Positions 1 through 22,770 of a DNA stretch of 64,000 nucleotides are shown here, piece after piece. Location of the stretch: positions 1 through 64,000 of the forward strand of contig NIVC01000010.1 in assembly GCA_002269645.1 (NCBI GenBank), in the 5' to 3' direction. A program made the translations under genes and the position numbers. The notes under the pieces were generated by a model. The model made no database searches, had not been told where the DNA came from, and saw only the letters and a program-made list of their open reading frames with translations. How positions within the stretch are numbered: the stretch's first letter is position 1; each line of letters opens with the position of its first letter. The DNA is from Macrostomum lignano. Its lineage: Eukaryota.

Positions 1-8
1 ATAATATT

Positions 9-1022
9 TCAAAAATTAGTCGTTAAATTAGATAGAGCAAATGATGTTGCTTGAACTGGTGATCCCGACGTAGTTAATGTCGTCCATGAATCGGTAGCAA
101 CATTTTTTGCGCGAACCGACCACCCCGAGGGTATCTCAATTGTTTCACTGCCTGTAATTCTTAATTCAAATATTCTTCTATTATAACCTAAAAATTCAAA
201 TTGAATTTCCATATTGGTTGTGGTTCCGGTATTTGGTGACCATTGTGTCGCAAGGCTTCCATCTCCAACTCGAAAAGCTGTGTTGCCATTTTCAGATGCT
301 GTAAGAACAACATCAGGATTTGAAGTATTTGATGTAAGCGGCGTGGTAAAAATATCGGCGTCGGTTGCATTAGCTCGCTCGTTTACTTGGCCTAGAGTTA
401 TCGAGTCTGCGTTCTCTGTTCCAAATAATAAATTTGTTAATTTAAAATTATTCATATTAATATTTCCACTACGAGTGGCAACTTGATTATCGACATAGTT
501 CTTATCAACCACTGAATCACTAGTTGTAATTGAAACATTTATAATTCGGTTGTTGCTCATATCTAGGTTTCCGGTTGCGGTGGTTTGAACATAACGTGAA
601 TCAGAATCAGTTCGAGAATAAGAATCAGTTACATCTCTTTTTAAATTTAATCCATTATCAACTTCGGTTTTGGTATAAGAATCGGCTACGTTCCGTTTCA
701 AATTTAATGAATTATCAACCTCTGTTTTGGTATAAGAATCGGCTGTATTGCGTTTTAAATTTAATGAATTATCAACTTCGGTTTTGGTATAGGAATCGGC
801 TACGTTCCGTTTCAGATTTAGTGAATCATCTATTTGAGTTTTGGTATAGGAATCTGCAACATTTCTTTTTAAATTTAATTTATTATCAATTTCAGTTTTT
901 TTATAACCTTCATCCTCATTAATATATCGATTATCTCCAAATGTAACACTTATTCCACCAGATGTGCCACCACCACCACTACTTGTTGTTCCGTTCCATG
1001 AGGGTGTTCCAGAAAATAACAT
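9..1022 (-). CDS. Fibre/spike-like virion protein with 19-aa tandem repeats and a C-terminal beta-sandwich (discoidin-like) region
   Basis: About five repeats of LNLKRNVADSYTKTEVDNS, followed by GNLDMSNNRIINV and DKNYVD fibre-type motifs, then DGSLATQWS. Lies next to the protease and penton genes. May continue past base 9 through a frameshift in a T run. Confidence 0.65.
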   Translation of the reverse strand: MLFSGTPSWNGTTSSGGGGTSGGISVTFGDNRYINEDEGYKKTEIDNKLNLKRNVADSYTKTQIDDSLNLKRNVADSYTKTEVDNSLNLKRNTADSYTKTEVDNSLNLKRNVADSYTKTEVDNGLNLKRDVTDSYSRTDSDSRYVQTTATGNLDMSNNRIINVSITTSDSVVDKNYVDNQVATRSGNINMNNFKLTNLLFGTENADSITLGQVNERANATDADIFTTPLTSNTSNPDVVLTASENGNTAFRVGDGSLATQWSPNTGTTTNMEIQFEFLGYNRRIFELRITGSETIEIPSGWSVRAKNVATDSWTTLTTSGSPVQATSFALSNLTTNF

Positions 1023-1032
1023 TTTTTACTGT

Positions 1033-1500
1033 CTATTTTATAGAGTCTAAAATCGCCCCGTAGGGTCGCATGCTTTGCATGATAGTCTTAAATACTTCGG
1101 GGGTATCCTTCGAGTTATTAATTTTATATAAAAAATACAACGCCGCTTGCCCGCAATAACTTTTATCAAAGGTTTGAAATTGTTCGTGATGATCTCCACA
1201 TAAACGATTTTTAGTATGATTAAATTTATCTTTTATTTCCTGTAACGGAGGAAGCGCGTATGAATCAAAAAAATAAACAAGTTTTGGTTTTGAATAAACT
1301 GCTGACCAATGAACACCATTTTCTTTTGTTGTTTCAATATTAACAATGAAACATCCATATTGTGGTAAGTCTTTGATCTCATCTCGCATAACACATCTGA
1401 ATGGTTTTATTTTTAACTGCCTCGCCCAATTTGTTAATTCGATATTGCTTGTTGTGTCCGTTCCATATCTTTGTTTAAAATCATCCCACGTCATGGTCAT
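1033..1500 (-). CDS. Adenovirus-type (adenain) cysteine maturation protease
   Basis: Catalytic motifs GVHW, FFDSY and Q...YCG in the expected order. Confidence 0.9.
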   Translation of the reverse strand: MTMTWDDFKQRYGTDTTSNIELTNWARQLKIKPFRCVMRDEIKDLPQYGCFIVNIETTKENGVHWSAVYSKPKLVYFFDSYALPPLQEIKDKFNHTKNRLCGDHHEQFQTFDKSYCGQAALYFLYKINNSKDTPEVFKTIMQSMRPYGAILDSIK

Positions 1501-1501
1501 T

Positions 1502-1708
1502 TTATGTTCCTGAAAAACTCTTGGTTTTAGTTAGTTTCGTAGGTGTGGGTTTTAACAATTCCTTTCTTATTTTATCAGCTTGTAACTGCCTTAATTTTGC
1601 TAGTTCTAGTTCGTAATTATCTTCAGCTTTTTTAACTTTTTCTGATTGTTTTTTTATTAAATTATTATTATCGTGCTTTGCACGCGAACATGTTGTTCGA
1701 TTACCCAT
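1502..1708 (-). CDS. Small basic coiled-coil protein with an N-terminal MG (possible myristoylation)
   Basis: 68-aa ORF tightly packed between penton and protease; starts MGNRTTCS. Confidence 0.5.
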   Translation of the reverse strand: MGNRTTCSRAKHDNNNLIKKQSEKVKKAEDNYELELAKLRQLQADKIRKELLKPTPTKLTKTKSFSGT

Positions 1709-1718
1709 TTTTACAGTA

Positions 1719-2504
1719 CTAAACCTGTTTTATACGTAAAATTATTGTTATTGATTGCCCACCAAAACTTATTAATCTATCGCTTTCATCTACAATCCTA
1801 ATATAAATTGATTGAACGCTATATTGATTTAAAGGATAATATATTGGGGTTTGGGGTGCAACAATCATTTTCTCTCCAATTGGAACAGCAAGAAATGGGA
1901 TTGAATAAATAATTCCACGTTGAACCAAAACTCCGTTATCGTCTGTTATATAACCACCGTTTGAAATGTCGGTTGTTATATTAATTGTATTTACTCCACC
2001 CTCTATATTTCCAACTGTATCACCGGTGCTTGATGTGGTAACTATTCGGGAATTAAATCCAAGTATGGTTCTGAGTGAATTTGCAATTGTGAAATCAACC
2101 TGATATCCGGATCCTAGTGATAGTGTGAATCTGCCAGACGGTAAATCAACACCTATAACAATTGCTCCTGCTACCCAATCACCATTAGTTGTTAATTCTC
2201 CTTCTATATAAGCATTCAAATCAGTATAGCTATACGCTCCTGGGTTAACGCTAAATGTTGTCCAATTGGCTCCGGAATCTTTAGAATATCTAAATTGATT
2301 ATTTGTTGCATTAATTAATTGAGGCATGTTGAAAACCGAAAATAGTATTAAACCTATTTGATAACTTAGGCTTTGATCAAGTTGTAATGGATCGCGCAAT
2401 TGAATCCGTTGCTCGCTGGTTGTCATTATAAACTGTAATGTTGTACTAAATTTTGAATTAGTTCGATCTACCAATTGTTTTATAGTATTTAAATTTGTAG
2501 TCAT
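1719..2504 (-). CDS. Minor capsid protein (penton, single jelly roll)
   Basis: 261 aa, beta-rich. Polinton penton-like motifs: INATNNQFRY, SLRTILGF, INITTDI, PIYYPL, IRIVDESDRLISFGG. Confidence 0.8.
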   Translation of the reverse strand: MTTNLNTIKQLVDRTNSKFSTTLQFIMTTSEQRIQLRDPLQLDQSLSYQIGLILFSVFNMPQLINATNNQFRYSKDSGANWTTFSVNPGAYSYTDLNAYIEGELTTNGDWVAGAIVIGVDLPSGRFTLSLGSGYQVDFTIANSLRTILGFNSRIVTTSSTGDTVGNIEGGVNTINITTDISNGGYITDDNGVLVQRGIIYSIPFLAVPIGEKMIVAPQTPIYYPLNQYSVQSIYIRIVDESDRLISFGGQSITIILRIKQV

Positions 2505-2558
2505 TTTTATAGTGGGAAATTAATCGGACGAAGTCCGATCGTTCCGAAGGTACGCGTG

Positions 2559-3359
2559 CTATGCACGATCCTCTTCTTCCTCATTATCTTCTTTTATCAA
2601 ATTTGTTAAAATTCTATGTTTCCTTTCTAACCTCGGATTGATATAAATATGTTTGTATTGGCTATCATCCCAAATTTTTTTACACATACTTTTAAATGGT
2701 TTTGCATCCAATCCGGGATTAAATCTAGCGTGTATATTTTGTAAATCATAATTATCTAAATCAAACATTACACAACAACTTGCATTCTTTTTTATAATCG
2801 ATTCTAATTCTCTAAAGGATTGAGTAAGATAAAAAGCTCCAATTCCATCTCCTCTACCACTAACAAAAATTTCCTTTTGCAATTCTTGATCACCGTCATT
2901 AATACAATCATCAAAAATAATTAGTGTTTTATCATGTTTTGGAATTTGATCATAGGCTAATCGGGTTGATACTCTAACAGTTGGGGCTCGATCGGACGAA
3001 GTCCGCGACCCTTCGGGGCGATCGGTGATGTTTTCTGGCTGTTGTGCCATTGTTTTACATAAATCCTCAATGTCTGCTAGATTAAATCGCGGTTCGTCAT
3101 CATCCTCATATTGCTCATATGCTCTTAACATTCTAAACAAGACATCTTTTTTTAATTTGTTTTTTAATCCATGTTTAAGAAATTCATAATATTTTATTCT
3201 AGGTTTATTAGTATAAATTATTAAATTATTATAGTCTAACATTCCATCTGTTGTTAATAAATCGTAAACAAAGTGTGTTTTTCCTTTACCTGATCCTCCG
3301 ATTACTAAACAAAGAAAAGGATCATTTGGAAATATTTTATTGTGTTTTGCCTTTACCAT
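2559..3359 (-). CDS. A32/FtsK-like genome packaging ATPase
   Basis: Walker A GGSGKGKT, Walker B LIIFDD, followed by GR and LTQ motifs. Confidence 0.9.
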   Translation of the reverse strand: MVKAKHNKIFPNDPFLCLVIGGSGKGKTHFVYDLLTTDGMLDYNNLIIYTNKPRIKYYEFLKHGLKNKLKKDVLFRMLRAYEQYEDDDEPRFNLADIEDLCKTMAQQPENITDRPEGSRTSSDRAPTVRVSTRLAYDQIPKHDKTLIIFDDCINDGDQELQKEIFVSGRGDGIGAFYLTQSFRELESIIKKNASCCVMFDLDNYDLQNIHARFNPGLDAKPFKSMCKKIWDDSQYKHIYINPRLERKHRILTNLIKEDNEEEEDRA

Positions 3360-3443
3360 TTTTAAAGAAATAATTTAAATAGGCGCGACGGTCGGAGACC
3401 TGCACTCATTTTACAATGGTGCGACGTGCTTTGCACTGCGACA

Positions 3444-4912
3444 CTAAAGTGGCGCGTCCCGAACAATCGTGCCATCAGCTTTAGCAATTGACATATATTC
3501 CTCTAGAAACAATACGTGGGCGTCAAGTGCCTGATTACCGGTTTTATTAATCTCTAACATATAATTAAGTCCAATATTGGCTACGTTTTCTTTCTGTGCC
3601 GTTAGATCATAAACAACCACTGGATGAATGTTTAGAAACTCTGTGGGTGTGTACTGAGGGACGGCATACGCTTCATTTTTAGCATAATCTTGATAATATT
3701 TTATAAAATCATTAACATTATTATTTGCAATATTTAATTAGAGGATCTTTAACCGGATAATATTGATCATCAACCTGCAGGCGGATATTCTGAACATTAA
3801 ACTCGTTAATAGCTGCAGCCGCATTGTCTGTTGCGGTGGCTGCTTGTTCTGCTATGGCACCGGATTGAAGCCAATATAAATCCCCATTTGCTCTTTTACT
3901 CCTTCTATTTGTTATCTTAAACCAAACAAAAATATATCTCACCCGACGTTTTGATGTCAGTATTTGCCACTGGAATGAATCCTGGTTATTATTAATGGTT
4001 CGCATAAAATGTCGACGATTCAAATAAAATATTTCCTGATCATGCGTTAACTGATTATCGATGTGTTTTAAAAGTGGGGCTGTTACCTCAATAGTTGGTA
4101 CGACTAATTGAATTGAATCTATACGAACTGCTATATCGGTTGAAATTGAGGTTCCATAAAGTATCCTAGGCTGATATCCACCAGATATTTGCAACTGTAT
4201 CCCAAATTTTAATCCTTTCCATACCCGATTTGGTGAGAAAACCCAAATAGCGGAAGATTGAAAAGTCCTGCTCATATGCTGTTGCTGTGGTTAAAACCGC
4301 GACTGGGAATTTATTCTGACGATCTATAAAACCAGTATTAATATCTTTTGTATTAGTCATAGTGGTTACAACTGGAACTATGTTTGTATTAAGGTAAACA
4401 ATTAGCGCTGCAGTATCTGCACCGGCTGCGTTTTGTACATTAGGGAAAACTACTGCTTGACCGTTACCTTTATCCGGCATCCACCCAACATTATCACCAA
4501 CTTGTTTTGATAAATAAGTATAATTTAAATGTTTCAAAACTCCATTAATCTCTGCGGGGTTTGATGATGTCTCAACCTCAGCACCATTAACAGTTAGTTG
4601 AGCTTGGGAAAAACATTTATAAAACCAATCATTTTCTATTATTATTCCGGATCGATCTGCGATATCTCCGGCTGCAAGAGCAGTTCCATCATTTCTAGTA
4701 TACAACCATCTAACGCGGAAAAACGCATTTTTCATATCCAATATAGTGTTGGTTGCGCCGATGTCAAAAGTTACCGTTCCAGTAGTAAAGTTATTTGAAT
4801 TATCACTTGTTGGTAGGGTATAATTTAAATCTCTTGCTCTGACCTCATTAATATACTGTCGGTGCTTTTTGAAATGAAATTTATCACTCCACATAGTTTT
4901 TGTTTCAGCCAT
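3444..4912 (-). pseudogene. Major capsid protein (double jelly roll), broken by two frameshifts (near 4255 and 3735)
   Basis: ORFs 4166-4912 and 3721-4275, plus a third frame I translated by hand (NIANNNVNDFIKYYQDY...HPVVVYDLT...DAPL*, stop at 3444-3446), join to about 490 aa with Polinton MCP-like motifs. Confidence 0.8.
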
Positions 4913-4946
4913 TTTTTTAAGTTAAAAAAGTTTTTTATGTTAAAAA

Positions 4947-5611
4947 ATGAGTCAATTTATGGACGTTGATGGAGAGTTAGCGATTTATAAAGAGAAGCAA
5001 AGATATTCTGATTTTGTTAGAAATTTACAAAAAAGAAAGTTAGGAATACAATTAGCGGGTGAAAGATTTGCTGCTCCTTTTGTTAATCCTATTACTGGGA
5101 AAATTAGTGAACTAGAAAAAACAGATAAAGATCTTCTGGAAAAAATTGCTAAAAATACGGAGCCAAAAGAGGATGAAATTTTGGATGAGCCGCCTGCTTA
5201 TGATGTTGATCAAGCACAATTGAGAATTGCAGAGATTAGACGTGCAGAGCGGGGCGATCGGAACAATATCCAAGAGTACCAGCTAGTATTGCTGCGACAG
5301 ATTTAGGTAATAATAATTATCGAATTGGTGGAGTTGATAAAAATCGAAATGAACTATATAGAGAATTGGGTGGAGCATATAATATTGTTATGAACCCTAG
5401 GGTAAAGTTTAACCCTGATTTATATACTAGGGATGAATTAATAAGTGCTAGAATTTTTTATGATGAGTTAGGAGGAGCTGTTAAAAATACCAGCTTGTAT
5501 AAAAGGATTGTTAATTCTATAAATAACAAACCAGCTGTTGGTGATGGATTTAAAACTCCTAGAAAACTTGTTTTAGCTGCTGCGAAAGCTGCTGGACATA
5601 CTGGTGTTTAA
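4947..5611 (+). pseudogene. Polinton gene of unknown function, one ORF split by a 1-nt frameshift near 5270
   Basis: The frame of ORF 5366-5611 is open upstream (PRVPASIAATDLGNNNYRIGG...) and overlaps the end of ORF 4947-5306. Confidence 0.55.
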
Positions 5612-5638
5612 TTAATTGTTAAATTTATTTTTTATAAA

Positions 5639-6208
5639 ATGGAAACTAATAAGATTTGTACTAAGTGTAAACAAGAAAAACCGATGACGAAAGAATTTTA
5701 TTTTTGGAGAAATGATTCAAAAAAATTTAGAAATGATTGTCGATCTTGTCATAATACCTCATCTGCTATTTGGATAAAAAACAATAAAGATAAATGGAAT
5801 GAATATAGAAAAAATAAGTATCACACTGATGATAATTACAAACATATTGTTTTAATTAGAAATAGAATAAATTGGGCGTTGAAAAATTTTAATGACAAGG
5901 ACTATATCTCATATCTTGGTTGCACAAAAGAATTCTTTTTTGATTGGTTAAATTTCACAAGAAATTATTATGTATCAAAAGATTATACTGGAAAGTTAGA
6001 TATTGATCATTTCATCCCCGCTTCTTCATTTAGTTACAAAGACGATGATCAGATTAAAAAGTCTGAAAATTGGAGAAATAAAAGATACTTAACTAGCGTA
6101 GATAATAACTATAAAAAAGTTAAACAACCAACAATTGAAGAATTTGCGAAACAATTGGTGCTTTCATGTATTTTTAAGGCTATTAAAAATGAACCAAATA
6201 GTGTTTGA
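5639..6208 (+). CDS. Free-standing HNH/EndoVII-like endonuclease with an N-terminal zinc ribbon
   Basis: CTKC...CRSC zinc ribbon, YLGC, LDIDHFIPASSF...WRN...DNNYKK. This resembles the architecture of homing-type nucleases in large DNA viruses. Confidence 0.75.
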   Translation: METNKICTKCKQEKPMTKEFYFWRNDSKKFRNDCRSCHNTSSAIWIKNNKDKWNEYRKNKYHTDDNYKHIVLIRNRINWALKNFNDKDYISYLGCTKEFFFDWLNFTRNYYVSKDYTGKLDIDHFIPASSFSYKDDDQIKKSENWRNKRYLTSVDNNYKKVKQPTIEEFAKQLVLSCIFKAIKNEPNSV

Positions 6209-6891
6209 AGGAGGATTTTTAGACTTACAAAAAGGATTAACGAGCTTACCACCAATCTTTACTACTGGTAAATATACAGGGGAACTACACCTACCATCAA
6301 TGAACTTCACAGGTTAACCCGTGGCCTGAGTGGTAGAAGCAAAGCTACTGCTAGTCACTATTAGTGGCGATGTCTCCAAATTGCGTGAAACCCGTCATAC
6401 AGCTTCAAGTACCACTTCAATTGAGAAATCTTTTGAAGGAACAGAGGTAACTCCTCTTCCCAAAGGTAAAAAGCTTGAAGACATGGTGGCAATGCGCAGC
6501 CAAGCTCCTAAGTATTTTAAATATAAGGAGAAGGTTCAGAGAGCAGACGGAGATGGGCGGTAATTATCGCCGCTTAAGGTGTGCTCCAGCCTCATTCGAA
6601 AGATTGAGGGTAAACAGCCGGGACTAGACTGGATTTAAGATTAAATCCTGACAATACTCCAAAATCTGATTCAATTCCAATAAATGGGATTGATTGGTTA
6701 GCATACTATCACGACTTAGCATATAGAGATGCTGACAAGAACCCGCCGAGGAAGCATTAAGATTAAAACATGAAGCCGATCAAAAAATGATTCAAGGATT
6801 AGATAACTTGCAGGGATTATCGGTAGGTCAAAAATTAACTAGGTGGATGGTTAAAAAGATCTTGCAGTCTAAAGTTAAATTTGGTTTGGGA
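6189..6891 (+). CDS. Parvovirus-type phospholipase A2 (PLA2X); exon 1 is 6189-6314, exon 2 starts at 6618
   Basis: Exon 1 ends GELHLPSMNFTG. After the intron the frame reads (P)GTRLDLRLNPD...PINGIDWLAYYHDLAY...KHEADQKM...KSKVKFGLG, giving the Ca-loop GPG and the catalytic HD and AD motifs. Needs a 1-nt correction near 6618 and another near 6743. Confidence 0.85.
6315..6617 (+). ncRNA. Group I self-splicing intron, subgroup IC1, with no internal ORF
   Basis: P AAATTGCGTGAAA (6378-6390), Q AATGCGCAGC (6491-6500), R GTTCAGAGAGCA (6534-6545), S AAGGTGTGCTC (6576-6586). P4 is TGCGT/GCGCA, P7 is GAGCA/TGCTC, P3 is GTCTCC/GGAGAT. P5abc has an A-rich bulge and GAAA loop, with a CCTAAG/TAAGG receptor in P6. 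P1 is CAGGT/GCCTG with a U-G pair at the splice site. Terminal G at 6617. Confidence 0.92.
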
Positions 6892-7764
6892 ATTAATTAT
6901 AATCAACATGGAAATAATTGTGTTGAGTGTTTACTATTAAGTGGCAGTGGGTTAAGTTCTGATGAGGCAAAGATTCTTCATAAAGAATATCGAAAACCTA
7001 AATTTTATAGAAAAATCATGAACTTCAAAAAGAATGAAATTTGGTATGCTGATTTAATGTCGATGCCGAAAGATCTGGGATATAAATATATCTTAACCAT
7101 ATTAGATGGTTTTACTCGATACGCGTGGGCTGTTCCTTTAAAATCCAAAAAGGGAGAGGAGGTTGCTGCTGCTTTTAGAAGTCTTGGAGAAAAAAGCGAA
7201 AGATTGTGTGTTGATGAAGGAAAAGAATTTTACAATCCTCATATGTATAAATTGTATCATTTTGAAAAAGGAAAAGAAAGGAAAAAAGACGCGAATGGGG
7301 AGTATATTAATAAAATTTATTCTATTTATGGAGAGAGTAAAAACGCATTAATAGAAAGATTTAATCGAACTTTAGGTAAGAAATTATGGTTTCAGTTTAG
7401 TCTTAATGGTAACCAAAAGTGGGTAAAAATATTACCAGACGTAGTGAAAGATTATAACAATTCATATCATTCAGCTATAAAGATGACTCCTCAACAAGCT
7501 TATAACAATCCTGAAAAAGTTAAAGTTACTTTTGGAAAATTTGAAAAAAATAAAAAGAAATCTTTTAAGGTTGGTGATTCTGTTTATATCTATAAATGGA
7601 AAGATAAGTTTGAAAAAGGAAGAAAAGGATATTGGAAGATAAGTGAGAAATTTACTATCAGTAAAGTTTTAAATACCAATCCTACAACCTATATAATTGC
7701 TGATAAGGACGGTGAAGAAATATTGGGTTCTTTTTATGAGAACCAGATAATGTCTGCGAACTAA
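6787..7764 (+). CDS. Retroviral-type (DDE) Polinton integrase, in frame with the PLA2 C-terminus
   Basis: WYADL, LCVDEGKEFYN and IERFNRTL give the D-D-E triad. Also YNNSYHSAIKMTP and an SH3-like FKVGDSV region. The first ~35 codons are the PLA2 tail. Confidence 0.92.
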   Translation: MIQGLDNLQGLSVGQKLTRWMVKKILQSKVKFGLGINYNQHGNNCVECLLLSGSGLSSDEAKILHKEYRKPKFYRKIMNFKKNEIWYADLMSMPKDLGYKYILTILDGFTRYAWAVPLKSKKGEEVAAAFRSLGEKSERLCVDEGKEFYNPHMYKLYHFEKGKERKKDANGEYINKIYSIYGESKNALIERFNRTLGKKLWFQFSLNGNQKWVKILPDVVKDYNNSYHSAIKMTPQQAYNNPEKVKVTFGKFEKNKKKSFKVGDSVYIYKWKDKFEKGRKGYWKISEKFTISKVLNTNPTTYIIADKDGEEILGSFYENQIMSAN

Positions 7765-7774
7765 GTTCAAACAG

Positions 7775-7999
7775 TTACTTAAGACAACATGGTAGTAAAT
7801 TTTTTATTACAAACAAAAACAATATTATTACTATAATTGTTACTAATATTATTATTGACATTTGTTCAACTGTTATCAAACTTAAATTTTCATTAAGTTC
7901 ATTAATTGGAACATTTCCGATGTAGGAATAGTTTACCTTCATTTTTTTATATATATTTTTCACAATAAATGTCGTTTCTGTTATAGAATAATAGTTCAT
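7775..7999 (-). CDS. Small putative membrane protein (C-terminal TM helix, di-Cys)
   Basis: Hydrophobic run SIIILVTIIVIILFLFVI followed by KNLLPCCLK. Confidence 0.4.
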   Translation of the reverse strand: MNYYSITETTFIVKNIYKKMKVNYSYIGNVPINELNENLSLITVEQMSIIILVTIIVIILFLFVIKNLLPCCLK

Positions 8000-8015
8000 T
8001 TTTTAAATATTTTTT

Positions 8016-8330
8016 TCACATAAAAATTTCACTTTCATTCTCTGAATCACTGGTTTCATATGAACTATTTGTTGATTCGGAATCTGTTGATCTAACCTCC
8101 CAATCATCCGAATTTAAATAATCTCCAAGTTGAAATATTAACTCACCCTCTTGTTCTAAATCATACATCTCATCTAGCTCTAATGGATAAAGTTTTAGGT
8201 CGTGCTTGTCGTCATATTTTAAATAAACTTCATCAATTATTCCATTCAAAATATGTTGTTTTATTATCTCTGCATTTTTAGCAACAGTCTCAAAAGTATC
8301 ACTAACAGAAAAGGTGTAAACTCGGGTCAT
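8016..8330 (-). CDS. Acidic hypothetical protein, last gene before the terminus
   Basis: 104-aa ORF with viral-like composition and an AT-rich upstream context like the other genes of the element. Confidence 0.5.
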   Translation of the reverse strand: MTRVYTFSVSDTFETVAKNAEIIKQHILNGIIDEVYLKYDDKHDLKLYPLELDEMYDLEQEGELIFQLGDYLNSDDWEVRSTDSESTNSSYETSDSENESEIFM

Positions 8331-8384
8331 TTTTAGTAACAGAAAAAGACCCTTCGCGCCTGCGGCGCGGGCAAGGGGTTATAG

Positions 8385-8655
8385 AGTAGTAGTATAGAAA
8401 AAGACGCTTCTAGATCAGACCTTATTTTAATGGCCGTTTGTAAGGTCTTAAGAGGGGGGACGCGAGGGGGGTGTTAGGGAGTGTTTGGAAGTGTTGGGAA
8501 GTGATTTTTATTGTTAGGGGTGATTATGGGTGATTAGATGTGTTAAGGGTGTTTAGATGTGTTTTTTTATTTACCCCCCGTGTCCCCCCTCTAGACCCTT
8601 AAAACGGTCATTAAAAAAGTGCTCTGGGTCTAGAAGCGTCTTTTTATATACTACT
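8385..8655. repeat. Polinton right terminus with an internal inverted copy of the end sequence
   Basis: AGTAGTATAGAAAAAGACGCTTCTAGA at 8388 matches the reverse complement of the end (AGTAGTATATAAAAAGACGCTTCTAGA) at 26/27. Similarity continues for about 85 bp. Confidence 0.85.
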
Positions 8656-10537
<1,882 letters not shown>

Positions 10538-16755: not shown

Positions 16756-16917
16756 TGAGCGGGGAAAATTGAAAATCTGCTTTGAGTACCAAACAGGTGC
16801 AGAGAAAGCTTACAGCAAAATTTAATTCAGAATGCGTTTGCAAACTTGACTACTCATAGTAATGCGCATCTTTAATTTAGCTATTAGGCGCAATAATAAA
16901 TTGCTGGTAAATACCTT

Positions 16918-19900
16918 TTAGAGCTCCATCTCCATGCCGATGTCAGGCAAGTCCAGGTCGCCTTCAGCGAGCACCTCCGGGTGGCGCGAGCTGGGCTCGA
17001 ACAGCTGACTGCATCGCAGGTCAGGCTGAACTGTGGCTGGCTGCTCTGGCGCAGGCTGATCGGCTGGGTCGACTTCGCTGTCTTTGCTCGACTCATAGGG
17101 CAGCATTGGCCACTCTGTCTGGCGCTGCGGCTCCTGTGGTCGATCTGCCATCATCTGCGGCACCTTGATGATGTTGTTACGATGAACTAGCATTTCAGCT
17201 GGGCGTCCTCGGCGGGCTGTCACTGGCTTGATCCAATACGCCACTTCTCCGACTTTCCTGATGACCTTGTACATACTCTTGTATGGCCGGTGGAACTTGG
17301 GCAGCTCTCCCAGTTCGAGCTTCGGGTTGGCCAGGCAGACCAAGTCTCCGGGCTGCAGCTCCACAGGCTTCGGCTGGTTCTCGTAGTACTCCTCTCGGCG
17401 CTGGATCTCGGTCCTCAGCCGCTGTCGCACAATTCGTTCTGTCTCGGCCAGTCTGCGCTGATGTTTGGCAATGTACTCCGGGAGATCAGCTGATACATCC
17501 AGTCGGTCTAGGGTGTTATCAATCGGATACCGGTAGGGCACTCCGTAGATGACATAATGCGGCGAGAACCCGGTTGTATGATTGACTGCTGATCTTAAAG
17601 CTGTTAAAGCGGCTGGCAACATCTTGTCCCATTGCTGATGGTCTTCTAGGAGACAGGTGAGCACCTTCTTGATGTTCTTATTGCACGACTCAGCTTGTCC
17701 ATTGGCCCATGGTGAATACGGCGGCGTCGTGGTCTGCCGGATGCCGTAAACTTTGCAGAAGTGCCGGAACTCGTGTCCTGTGAACTGTTTCCCTTGATCG
17801 GAGTGAATCCATGCCAGGATTCCGGTGATCAGAAACACTTGTTCCTGCAGGAGCGTTATAATGGTCTTGGCCTGCTGATTCTTCATGGCGAAGGCGAAGG
17901 GGTATTTCGACGTGGTGTCAACATAGGTCAGGATGTACTTGTTGCCTCAGTCTGTCGGGTCTCCAGTGGGGCCCAGGATATCGATCACACATCGCCCATA
18001 GATTTCACAGACCAGAAACGATTGTACATGCGCCGGAATTTGTCGCCGTCCTTTGCTCTGAGTGCAGGTCTGGCAGGAAGCGACATAGTCGGACACTGCC
18101 TTGGCCAGGGCAGGTCGCCAGAACCTTTCACGCACCTTCGTGATGGTGAGGTCTCGGTCCATGTGTCCGCAGTAGGGTGAACCGTGGAGGTCGGCGAACA
18201 CCGTGGCGTTGAGGCTCTTTGGCAGGACGATCTGTGCCATTTCCTCCTTGCCAATATTGTCGAAATGAATTACCAGTAGTCCATCGTCTCGGACTTCGAG
18301 CTGCTCATAGAATGCTAGTAGGTTTCGTTCGTCTCGCGTCATATTCAAACGCTGATTCAGCGGCGGCTTCGGCTGTCGGCTTTCCAAAAGATTGATCATC
18401 ATGGCGATGGCAGAGTCAGCACGCTGATGAGTCTGGAGCTCCTCACGAGTGACTGGCCTCGGGATGTGATCAGTTAGATTCAATGATGGGCGTCAGTTAG
18501 TTAAATTAGTCAGCGCGGCTTCGGCTGTGGCGGCATGGTTCGGGGTCTGGAGCTCCCTCCGCATGATTGCTACTCTGGCCGGTTGCCGGGTTGTTGATGT
18601 GCCCGAAGGTCGATCCTCGTCGGTAGCTTTGGCGTCACTGTTGTCGGATTCAGATCGGTCAGCAGTTGATGATGAGTCAGCAGAGCTGTCCGCGTCACTG
18701 CTGAATCTCACCTTCTTCTCAAACTTTGGGCAGCAAGCGAGTTGGCAGCTGTCCTCTCTGGCTGCGCTGTGGTTGCTGTCCATGCCATCTCCAGCTAGTA
18801 GTCGGCGGCTCCTTGACAGGCAACATGTCGTGCTACTAAAACTGGTAGGCGACCTCTGCAAGTCATCGTAACGGCTGGCTGATGGCCTCGGCTTCGTCGC
18901 CGGCAGGTGCAGCTCTGTCAGCGGCTTGCTGTCGGCTTTCGGTGTTGCTGGCGGCATAGCCTCGCTGTTGGACTCCTTCGGCTTAGTCGGCGGTTTCCGT
19001 TGCTTACGGCGGGTCGACAGCTTCTTGCTCGGTGGAGGACTAGGGTGGCTGCTGTCGTGGACCTTCGGTGCCGCTGCGCCAGTTATCGCGGCTGGCTGCT
19101 TACTTTGGTCCCCTTCAGCTGCCTCTCGCTGAGCCTCCTCCAAGCATTCGGCGTCATCCTCCGGCCGTCTCGAGAGACCGTCGGCATTTTGATGCTGACT
19201 CAATTTGCAATGCTGGATCTCGAACTCAAATTCACTTAGCCGCTGTAGCCATCATCCGAAGATGCCTACTTGTTGAGTTCGCCGGAGAATCCAGGTCAAC
19301 GCTGCATGGTCGGTTCGACAAATGAACTTCTTGGCCAGCAGGTAGAAACGGAAATGTCGCATGCCATCTACGACTGCCAAGAGTTCTTGCTTAGTAATTG
19401 GATATCGGGCTTCAGCCGGTTTAAGTCGCCGGGAGAAATAGCCAATTGGGCGCTCGATCCCGTCAGCTTGGCGTTGGCTCAGGCAGGCTCCGATTCTGGT
19501 CGCAGAAGCATCCGTGTCCAGGATAAACATTACTTCCGGATCCTCGCTGAACTGCGGATACGCGAGCACTGATGTCGAAGTCATGGCTGCTTTGAGCTGG
19601 TCGAACGCGTCTTGCTGGGCTTTTCCCCATAGACAATTGAAATTGCGGATTTTCTTCTCTTTGATTATATCGTGGAGCGGAGCTGCAAGTTCTGCATAGC
19701 CAGGTACAAATTTTGCATAGTAAGCGCACGTGCAGACGAAACTTTTAAGTTGTCGAGCTGTTCTTGGTCTTGGCCAGGTCTGAATAGCCTCAATCTTCGC
19801 CGGATCGGTCTTGATGCCGTCCTTAGTAACTACATGTCCCAGATAGTTTAGGCTTGCCCGAAATAAATGGCACTTCCTGCTTTTGAACTTTAAGTTGGCC

Positions 19901-22770
19901 TCTTGAATTCGCTTAAATACTTCCTCCATATGCTGTAGATGGTCATTAAATTTCCTAAAATAGACGATTAAGCTGGCTGGCGCCGAACTTAATCCCATGG
20001 GCATCACATTGTAGGCAAATTGTCCGCAGTGCAGCGTGGCAAAGGCCGTCAGATCTTGATCCTCTGGACGCAGTGGAATCTGGTAGTAGCCGCTGTTCAA
20101 GTCGAACGTGATGAATAGCTGGCTTCCTTCGAGGCTAGCGAACGCTTCCTAGATGTTCGGTATTGGGTACGGAAAGTATTCGCACTTTTGGTTCAGACTC
20201 CTGAAGTCTTGTACAATTCTCAGGCTGCCATCCTTCTTTGGGATGATCACCAGCAGGGTGTTGTAGCTGGAGAAGCTCGGTCGAATCACGCCTTTGGCAA
20301 GCAGATCGTCAAGCAGCTGGTCCACCTTGGGCATCAGATGCGGCGGAATCCTTCGGGTCGGCAGATGTACAGGATCCTTGTCCTTCAACACGATGTTGTG
20401 GGTGACCAGGTGAGTTCGGCCGAGATCGTGTGGCCTCTGCGAGAAGATGGTCTTGTACCTCTTCAATAGCTCGATGACTTGAGCGCGCTGGTCATTAGAC
20501 AAGTCCTCGCCGATGTCGATCTCTTTGATCCAAGCGTCAGGATCTTCGTCTTGAACTTGATTAACTGAAGCTTCTGGCTTCGGCAGCAGAAAGAATTGTA
20601 ACTCGGGCAGTCTGATTGGTCTAGCAATCCCAACTAGGGCATTCGCTTGCACTTTGATGGAAGTAGTGCCTCGATTGATCATCTCAATGGCGCCTTCTCC
20701 ATTGGCCATAGATATTAGGGCAGGCGCGGCGTCCAGTTGCTGCATATCTTCTTCCCGCCGAGCCGGTTTTAGCGGCTCGATCACAGTAGGTGTGCCCTAG
20801 TTTTCTTCTCGTCCTTTTGCTAGTTTAATCTTGATTCGGGCTGATGATAATGGCGGCACGGTTGTGCTCTCAGCCGTGTAGATTCTGCACGTAGTAGCTT
20901 CAGTTCGCGTATAGCGCAGTGGTGCGGCAGTGCCATCCTTGAAAAACAGCATCCCGGCGGCGAGATCCAGTGATGTACTGTACTTCTCCAGGAACTCGAA
21001 GCCCACGATGTTGTCATGAGATCCCTTCGCTAGCAGGAACTTGACTGTAGGCTCGAAACTTCCAATTTTAACTTTGATTGATAGTTGGCCTGCCATTTGA
21101 ATAGGCTCTCCATTGTAGATCACGATGCGTTGCAGGCAGGGCTCGATTTGGCCACGCAGGGTCGGGTCATCGGTACATAGTTGGTGCCAGGTGCTGAATC
21201 CTAGGACTTCGCACTTGGAGCTGGTGTCAAGCAGAAAAGCAAAATAATGGCCCTGAATCTCACCAGTTAGAACAATCCCTTCGGGGTCGCTTGGGTGCAG
21301 AGTTATGTATAGGTGCAGCGGAGGCAGTCTCAGCAGTGGCCTGCTGAGCGACTAAAGTCCTCGGCGGGGACCTTAGTGCTGGCTCAGCTGCTGGATGGCG
21401 CTGCCCCCATTGGCGCGTACAGCCGTCCCGTTTTCCGAGCTGCCGTTGCGCTGGGGCGCGGTGCTGGCCGACCGCCAGTGCAGGCACTCATCGGCGTGGT
21501 GCTCGCGATTGCACCTGTAACACATAGCACTCTGTTGCCGCAGCTGATAGGGCGGCGGGCGTGAACCCGACTGTTGCTGCTGCTGCGGCTGCTGCTGCTG
21601 CTGCTGTCGACGTTGACCTCCTGCTCGCGGTGTCCTTGGTGGCGGGTTGCTGCCATCTCGTGGTTGCTGAAGTCGATGGAACTGCTCGTGCTGCACAATC
21701 CGTGTGCCGGGTGTCTTGAATTGGGCGCTCTCATTGGCGCTGCGGCGAGGAGTCGAGGGCACCAAACATCTGTTGCGTTGGCCCCAAGAGTCCTGCGGCT
21801 GGTGGCGAGCAGATTCCCAATGCTCCTGGGTGTCGTTATTGCGCGATCCCAGCAAGTGGAACTCTCGCAGCTCATTGCTCAAAGCTTCTAGTAGACGTTG
21901 CTGCTCTTGCAGTGTCTCAGTTTGCTGTTCCATCACTTCACGCAACCAATTCTCCTCGGGCCAAGATGACTTGTCGTGTTGCACTCCAGTTGCTGACTGA
22001 CTGTCGTCATCTTCGAGGACCTGGACATGTCTCGCTGCTGGCGGCAGTGCTATCCTCTGAGCCAGACTAGCTGCTATCTCCAGGCATAGCACAGCCCTTC
22101 TCGCTGCGGTCAGATTCTGCGGTCGCACCAGGATTAGCTGTTCTCTGGCTGACTGGGCAATTCGCACTCCCATGGTGAACTGGTCCACTAGCTCGGCCTG
22201 CTTCTGAACCGGGGTGAAGTGCGGGAATGCTCTATTGGCCAGAGCGATTAATCAATCGCCGTAGTCATCCACACTCTCATTCTTGCCTTGCTGGCAGCAC
22301 CGGAATTGCTCACGGTACTCCAGCGTGTCGTGCGTGAAGCGCTCGGACAATCTCTGCTTGAATTTGCCAAACGTCAGATTGTCCGGCAGTTCCATCCTGA
22401 GGACTGCGGGATAGGTTCTGGCGATGTCCAAATTCACTAGGACTTCCGCCTTCTTACGTCTGTCGTCCATGATCCCGTTGAGTTCGCAACGCTCCTCGAG
22501 AGCCTGGATCCAGATGTCAAAGTCCTGGTTCGGGGTGTACCGCTGAATCTTGACCGGTTTTGGCGCCGGAGCTCGGTCAGGCTGTTATGGCGGCTGATAC
22601 ATGTGGTGATAGTGCTGCGGCTGTCCCAAGTTGGCTTGCTCCAGTCGCCATCTCACCTCTTCGGTCACTGCTCAAATCATCTTGTTGTAGGTCGGCCTAG
22701 TAGTTGAGTTGTCAAGGCCTGCGGCGTCGGCTGTTGAATCCATGGCCGTTGAGTTAGTTGTCGAAGCCAT
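16918..22770 (-). pseudogene. Gypsy gag-pol with stops and frameshifts
   Basis: Gag zinc knuckle CYRCNREHHADEC; protease LLDTSS; RT (VIIPKKDGSLRIVQDFRSLN, YNVMPMGL); RNase H (LDTDAS, TDHAAL); integrase (H-H-C-C, HSDQG, GQAE, YRYP). Confidence 0.92.

Follow-up and report, generated by a model that had tools for sequence, protein, structure and literature searches.

A group I intron within a GGNCC site and two mutually exclusive nuclease genes in Polintons of Macrostomum lignano: a probable shield against an Eco47II-like nuclease

Collaborative homing was defined for the nuclease F-CphI and the psbA intron of the cyanophage S-PM2 (PMC6083498) and has been raised for helicase genes of entomopoxviruses (PMC11296320). 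I-Ssp6803I is an intron-encoded PD-(D/E)XK homing endonuclease with a target of 17 bp (PMC3424549). For phages, the turnover between intronic and free-standing nucleases and swaps from HNH to PD-(D/E)XK genes in one slot have been discussed (PMC10448857). HNH domains occur within Polinton polymerases (10.1101/2023.08.22.554363), and group I introns were reported for Polinton-like viruses of protists, with neither a nuclease nor a target assigned (PMC12220804); tables S11-S12 of that study, which lie outside the scope of our literature search, may list related introns. A 2013 review describes nuclear group I introns as known only in rDNA (PMC3679873). The literature search, with subscription journals and supplements outside its scope, returned no report of an Eco47II-like intron nuclease, of GGNCC loss in Polintons or of an intron in a Polinton phospholipase gene.

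The locus described here lies in a window of 64,000 nucleotides from the Macrostomum lignano contig NIVC01000010.1. The first 8.6 kb of the window are the right-hand part of an element of the Polinton/alpha-adintovirus type (1..8655, no strand assigned), which is cut by the contig start and contains an A32 ATPase, an rve integrase and the right terminal inverted repeat (about 8339-8655). The hallmarks of such elements were found to be present (integrase, A32 ATPase, capsid, phospholipase, protein X and terminal inverted repeats), with a capsid match in families B and C only. Family B shares about 58% identity with family A in the phospholipase and the integrase, and family C is a third Polinton family adjoining the other two. 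The phospholipase has been described as typical of the alpha modules of adintoviruses (PMC8502044). An ORF of 1302 aa, which was looked at as a candidate for the protein-primed polymerase B, had Endonuclease_7 as its sole Pfam match. Beside the Polinton, retroelement remains were located at positions 8557-9557 and 16900-22500; they comprise a reverse-transcriptase fragment and, judged by their motifs, pieces of Gypsy-like pol and gag.

The phospholipase A2-integrase gene has an exon 1 (6189..6314, + strand) with a Gly codon at its end, which supplies the U of the P1 U-G pair. This exon is followed by a group I intron of 303 nt (6315..6617, + strand), located within the codons of a Gly-Pro pair, and by exon 2 (6618..7764, + strand), which encodes the remaining phospholipase and the fused rve integrase and has frame breaks near 6618-6620 and around 6745. 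For the intron, the Rfam model RF00028 gave a match at positions 6305-6608 with 61.3 bits (cut-off 50). Its P1 U-G pair and P7 are present, and P7 is identical across copies. The ends at 6315 and 6617 were set by the P1 pairing and by comparison with three intron-less copies. Contigs from eight sequencing runs, the type of which was guessed, contained no junction that bypasses the intron, which speaks neither for nor against its splicing or expression. An earlier interpretation of the window from its letters (the sequence-only reading) stated that the intron lacks an endonuclease ORF of its own, which agrees with our finding of no ORF of 70 aa within it. The same reading described the host gene as a PLA2 gene. 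The phospholipase is, however, only the N-terminal part of a larger protein: in an intron-less sister copy, a single frame of 424 aa contains both a Phospholip_A2_4 and an rve domain, which shows the intron to lie in a gene for a phospholipase-integrase fusion. This frame is open from exon 2 through the integrase in 65 of 113 sister copies and broken in the window copy. The in-frame fusion was observed in two families (window 6189-7764; L061:2072-3343), whereas adintoviruses have been described with the phospholipase fused to protein X.

The 3′ terminal nucleotide of the 115 type-A introns was an A in 85 and a G in 30 copies; the window copy ends with a G. P7 is unaltered in the A-ending introns (e.g. 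L005, L020 and L067), and in 50 of the 85 the frame from exon 2 into the integrase is still open. For ND5-717 of hexacorals, an intron that ends in A has been described (PMC6545197). A second intron type, found in 24 copies (L149:1867-2200, L068, L160 and 21 more), uses the same 5′ splice site. It has the 5′ periphery in common with type A, a different catalytic core, a poorly defined 3′ splice site and no RF00028 match, and is possibly a chimeric intron. Palindromic inserts of about 30-35 nt are present in some copies and absent from others at gene starts (near that of the phospholipase in L033, L063, L085 and L149) and in a loop of the intron (L011, L067). They resemble a very small mobile repeat that belongs to the element.

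Upstream of the phospholipase lies a variable slot. It is flanked by a conserved gene (4947..5611, + strand), which is in two pieces here and forms one ORF of 223 aa in sister copies, and is opened by an AT-rich gene-start motif (5619..5641, + strand). A like motif was also found 5′ of other element genes and of the intron-borne nuclease gene of family B. In the window, the slot is occupied by an intact gene for a free-standing endonuclease with a Zn-finger and an HNH motif (D-H..N..N; 5639..6208, + strand), one of two mutually exclusive occupants. The gene encodes 189 aa and overlaps with its 3′ end the phospholipase ATG at 6189, as described in the sequence-only reading. The protein has two CxxC pairs, D123-H124, N147 and N156. 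In an alignment of 101 HNH relatives (5 copies and 96 of the best 150 profile matches), H124, N147, N156 and K159 show no substitution, and 97 of the sequences have D123. The sequence SENWRN before the HNH Asn, which looked atypical in the sequence-only reading, is not atypical: N147 is found in all 101 relatives.

A profile built from 10 copies matched 17,263 protein clusters, and the PHROGs matches were endonuclease VII and HNH families. A word-index protein search with the HNH protein gave no match, no Pfam family matched it, and a scan of viral contigs for it gave two distant matches. Sequence searches of the PDB gave no match below E 0.01. The structure model has a pLDDT of 94; its top fold matches are mostly HNH domains with weak scores (an E of at best 0.04 in Foldseek and a Z of 4-5.4 in VIA). 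A frame of at least 180 aa was found in 73 of 107 loci, while 34 copies are broken. Each catalytic and Zn residue is kept in 72-73 of the 73 whole frames, which were counted without motif-based selection. The dN/dS was 0.49 overall compared to 0.09 for the integrase, which corresponds to purifying but weak selection. By these sequence measures the HNH gene is not decaying, contrary to the suspicion raised earlier.

For the census of the slot, genome searches yielded at least 150 exon-2 matches (150 of 446 candidates scored) and 132 HNH matches. Duplicates (12) and members of a distant family (14 loci) were set aside, and 146 family-A loci were classed. Between the conserved upstream gene and the phospholipase, HNH was found in 107 loci and an Eco47II-like nuclease gene in 37 (e.g. 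L063:1282-1785, free-standing); two loci had neither and none had both. Both genes have the same borders, beginning at the same AT-rich start motif and ending at the phospholipase start. The 107 HNH loci comprise 83 with a type-A intron, 17 with the second intron type, three without an intron and four without exon 2 in the stretch, so that an intron is present in 100 of the 103 HNH copies that include exon 2. All 37 loci with the Eco47II-like gene have an intron and none has HNH. All three intron-less family-A copies carry HNH, two of them with a whole frame. The absence of the Eco47II-like gene from intron-less family-A copies (0/37 vs 3/103) is not significant (P 0.57). HNH without a phospholipase downstream was found in two copies. 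Two shortened, rearranged element copies (L116, L117, L231) have, downstream of HNH, another gene in the opposite orientation.

The haplotype distances of HNH and intron were uncorrelated (Spearman rho 0.01-0.02 for the 39 distinct copies among 49 that could be used). For the Eco47II-like gene and the intron, rho was 0.35-0.45 (12 of 20 copies), in a small group in which all segments are more linked. No flanking polymorphism was tied to the slot type (maximal r2 0.21). Two intron-less HNH copies are 98.5% alike and have different flanks, i.e., they are independent integrations, which suggests a lineage that replicated in the intron-less HNH state. The HNH of one intron-less copy is 93-96% identical per region to the HNHs of intron-bearing copies. 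Furthermore, at least four divergent N-terminal HNH types occur with the same exon sequences.

These data bear on the homing pair of HNH gene and intron that was proposed in the sequence-only reading. A pairing of a nuclease with the intron at FTG|PGT is well supported, but the nuclease that fits is the Eco47II-like one, which is absent from the window. The HNH gene does stand free beside an ORF-less intron, as in collaborative homing, but it was found neither confined to intron-bearing alleles nor co-inherited with them, and the co-occurrence of the two across family-A copies is largely contradicted by the 37 introns without HNH, the three intron-less copies with it, the two HNH copies that lack the phospholipase and the missing haplotype correlation. 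HNH is therefore probably not the partner of the intron, as far as the copies in the genome indicate. In an alternative that we regard as unlikely, HNH took over from the Eco47II-like enzyme, cuts the intron-less phospholipase allele and spreads together with the intron. The gene is adjacent and intact, most of its copies accompany an intron, and since the flanks show at most an r2 of 0.21, the immunity of its carriers must come from the intron or the slot itself; an intronic-to-free-standing turnover is also one origin proposed for such loci (PMC10448857). Against this stand the HNH genes of the intron-less copies, whole in two cases and in one closely similar to those of intron-bearing copies, the uncorrelated haplotypes, the divergent HNH types on common exon sequences, and the GGNCC site described below, which already accounts for the position of the intron.

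The Eco47II-like nuclease was matched by the Pfam family RE_Eco47II (PF09553) with 26.2 bits in its intronic form (cut-off 25.9) and, below the cut-off, with 22.8 bits in its free-standing form. The structure model reached a pLDDT of 85-96 over most of residues 1-160. Its best fold match was EcoO109I with an E of 6e-5 and a TM of only about 0.5, and AvaII, which has the site GGWCC, matched more weakly. Eco47II homologues have been assigned GGNCC (PMC10305163), and EcoO109I recognises RGGNCCY (PMC3089450). A genome search with the gene gave 104 matches and led to family B, where an RF00028 intron interrupts the gene at the identical Gly|Pro position and, in 37 loci, harbours an Eco47II-like ORF; no fewer than 13 of these ORFs are whole. 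The ORF lies in a peripheral loop of the intron and has its own start signal, the gene-start motif of the element. The dN/dS was 0.25 for the free-standing and 0.38 for the intronic form; many copies are broken, and 51 of 142 integrase frames failed the intactness test as well. A total of 137 places in the genome fit the 5′ junction pattern of the intron. The intron-less junction pattern with Asn-Phe-Thr had no match and the widened pattern had 22. Intron-less copies were counted as at least 19 in family B and three in family A.

Outside the genome, three metagenome homologues were found, the tails of which apparently read into an intron core, and a metagenome scan for the gene confirmed 0 of 121 candidates. 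All three viral-contig homologues adjoin C5 methyltransferases, and two of these contigs are from giant-virus bins by name. The pairs of nuclease and C5 methyltransferase lie at L253:7869-9921, L254:7680-9696 and L255:8001-9297 in contigs of large eukaryotic viruses; GGNCC was found 30 times in L255 vs 137 expected. The intron pattern had six chance matches in the viral contigs, with no intron among them. No methyltransferase was found among 36 scanned ORFs (12 from the window and 24 from families A and B; short ORFs partly scanned), and a search of the genome gave one weak match of 30% (E 3e-4). A tree with its root between the giant-virus pair and all other sequences joins the free-standing, intronic and metagenome forms in one fork, with no order of descent between the free-standing and the intronic form.

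A Gly codon followed by a Pro codon always contains GGNCC, hence the insertion of the intron at GGN|CC splits such a site. The insertion site lies within the predicted target of the Eco47II-like nuclease, and the intron abolishes this target. GGNCC is present at 22 of 22 intron-less junctions, where it follows from the construction of the pattern, and at all 15 junctions that were read directly. In the window element GGNCC was not found (0 vs 7.1 expected; none in 1-8400), and the nine intron-bearing element sets contain 2 sites vs about 121 expected in a second-order Markov model. The representatives of families A and B have 0 vs 12.7 (P 3e-6) and 0 vs 16.4 (P 8e-8), respectively. GGNCC was the lowest of 16 interrupted palindromes in all 15 family A/B sets, and among 6,400 words it ranked first by depletion in three of four A/B test elements and seventh in the intron-less one. 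Gly-Pro was absent from the ORFs of all nine intron-bearing sets (3-8 expected each) and was counted as 3 and 3 in family C. The depletion holds under Markov, codon-shuffle and sister-family controls. Since the element sets are related copies, the independent evidence comprises two families and one control.

In the control, family C, in which the Eco47II-like gene was not found, GGNCC occurs 23 times vs 21.5 expected. Host DNA, i.e., the other 55.6 kb of the window, has 115 vs 141 expected. A host-wide avoidance of GGNCC was rejected given these host counts and the normal value of family C. RGGNCCY was likewise rejected as the target, because every GGNCC was lost and the junctions do not fit RGGNCCY. 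The word statistics point to a 5-bp site for the Eco47II-like nuclease. The intron-less sets contain 1-5 GGNCC, one of them always at the junction. In the stretch from the slot to the integrase, no GGNCC was found in 113 copies with the type-A intron (238 kb), exactly one, at the junction, in each of the three intron-less family-A copies, two in 28 intron-bearing copies of family B, and six, located in one inserted stretch, among 24 copies with the second intron type. CCWGG is moderately depleted in family A only (L229-L230, L213-L214 and L223-L224; 2-5 vs 12-13 expected), which could mark a second nuclease target.

Our best reading of these patterns is that a more unusual nuclease-intron pairing than the HNH pair underlies the locus. 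The intron splits the last GGNCC of the element and probably shields it from the Eco47II-like nuclease, which sister copies carry either within the intron or directly upstream of the phospholipase, with HNH as an intact, likely later occupant of the slot that presumably has a different target. Two findings count against shielding: the genome still contains no fewer than 19 family-B copies that lack an intron, and a 5-bp cutter would shred the host DNA with its 115 sites in the rest of the window. The wider scenario, to which we give about even chances, is a methylase-free restriction system of Polintons, in which the elements would carry a GGNCC cutter captured from giant viruses and would define self by the erasure of GGNCC, with the one indispensable site hidden behind the intron; the intron would be homing with a 5-bp enzyme, and intron-encoded, free-standing and displaced stages would occur in one genome. 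The nuclease would have been taken from a giant-virus restriction-modification pair without the methylase, and the element would have protected itself by erasing its GGNCC sites, Gly-Pro included. The Gly-Pro of the phospholipase Ca-loop cannot be recoded, and this one site would have been split by the intron instead. As host DNA is full of GGNCC, integrated copies must keep the nuclease gene silent; the predicted cutter would act when elements replicate together, and an intron-less rival that is cut would be either destroyed or repaired from the intron-bearing allele, i.e., by homing.

In family A, the nuclease gene would then have moved out of the intron and into the slot upstream. Once the intron was close to fixation, the Eco47II-like gene may have been displaced by a free-standing HNH that cut HNH-less slot alleles, a step that we judge to be evenly poised. 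In our best reading, HNH is a nuclease of the homing type that stands free and has taken the slot over. No flanking change protects HNH carriers, so its target likely lies in the displaced gene or the slot borders, a location that we would back about as readily as doubt. A target outside the element appears less probable, and the intron-less junction is doubtful.

The GGNCC purge was seen in two families only and could predate the nuclease gene. It has a further possible explanation, which we consider slightly less likely still than homing by HNH: purge and intron may be an anti-restriction measure against a co-infecting giant virus, the nuclease having been captured later and now being directed, as a weapon, at the DNA of the host or of rivals and not used for homing. 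The closest outside homologues with known context are indeed the nuclease-methylase pairs of giant viruses, and HNH-bearing copies without the Eco47II-like gene are purged of GGNCC as well. However, HNH and Eco47II-like copies recombine freely and have one common backbone, and at 37 loci, and apparently in the three metagenome homologues too, the nuclease gene is carried by exactly that intron which interrupts the site. It is very improbable that the two nucleases are passengers in decay and that the depletion of the word arose by an accident of composition: the broken copies of both genes and the weak constraint on HNH relative to the integrase would fit, but integrase frames failed the intactness test as well, the catalytic residues are kept in nearly all whole HNH frames, and the depletion survives all three controls.

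If shielding by the intron and self-protection by site erasure are correct, self and non-self would be told apart by erased sites and an intron and not by methylation, and a short-site restriction enzyme would work as a homing nuclease. This would be a nuclease conflict of the phage style among endogenous eukaryotic viruses, which implies that the elements replicate and recombine together. The copies would offer natural snapshots, with GGNCC as a named target, for the question of how intron-encoded and free-standing (collaborative) nucleases interconvert.

The arrangement resembles F-CphI and the psbA intron of S-PM2 in that the gene of a free-standing nuclease adjoins a group I intron which has no ORF and would prevent self-cleavage. 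It differs in that the element is a eukaryotic Polinton purged of the site as a whole, HNH does not track with the intron, and the fitting nuclease has a restriction fold and a predicted 5-bp site and is also found inside the intron. I-Ssp6803I likewise is a restriction-fold nuclease encoded in a group I intron, but belongs to PF11645 and has a long target, whereas the nuclease described here falls into PF09553 with a short predicted site, the rarity of which would come from the purge of the element. The PF09553 match, the EcoO109I-like fold and the GGNCC avoidance are shared with Eco47II-type restriction-modification systems of bacteria and of the giant-virus contigs L253-L255; in the Polintons, however, no methyltransferase was found in the ORFs scanned and the gene is intron-borne or free-standing. 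In protist Polinton-like viruses, a Polinton-like gene is also interrupted by introns that match RF00028 and measure about 300 nt, but here the intron host gene is the phospholipase-integrase fusion. In phage HEG islands, a single slot next to a conserved gene is filled by either an HNH or a PD-(D/E)XK gene, as is the case here, whereas the present case concerns an endogenous eukaryotic virus with all states among about 150 copies of one genome.
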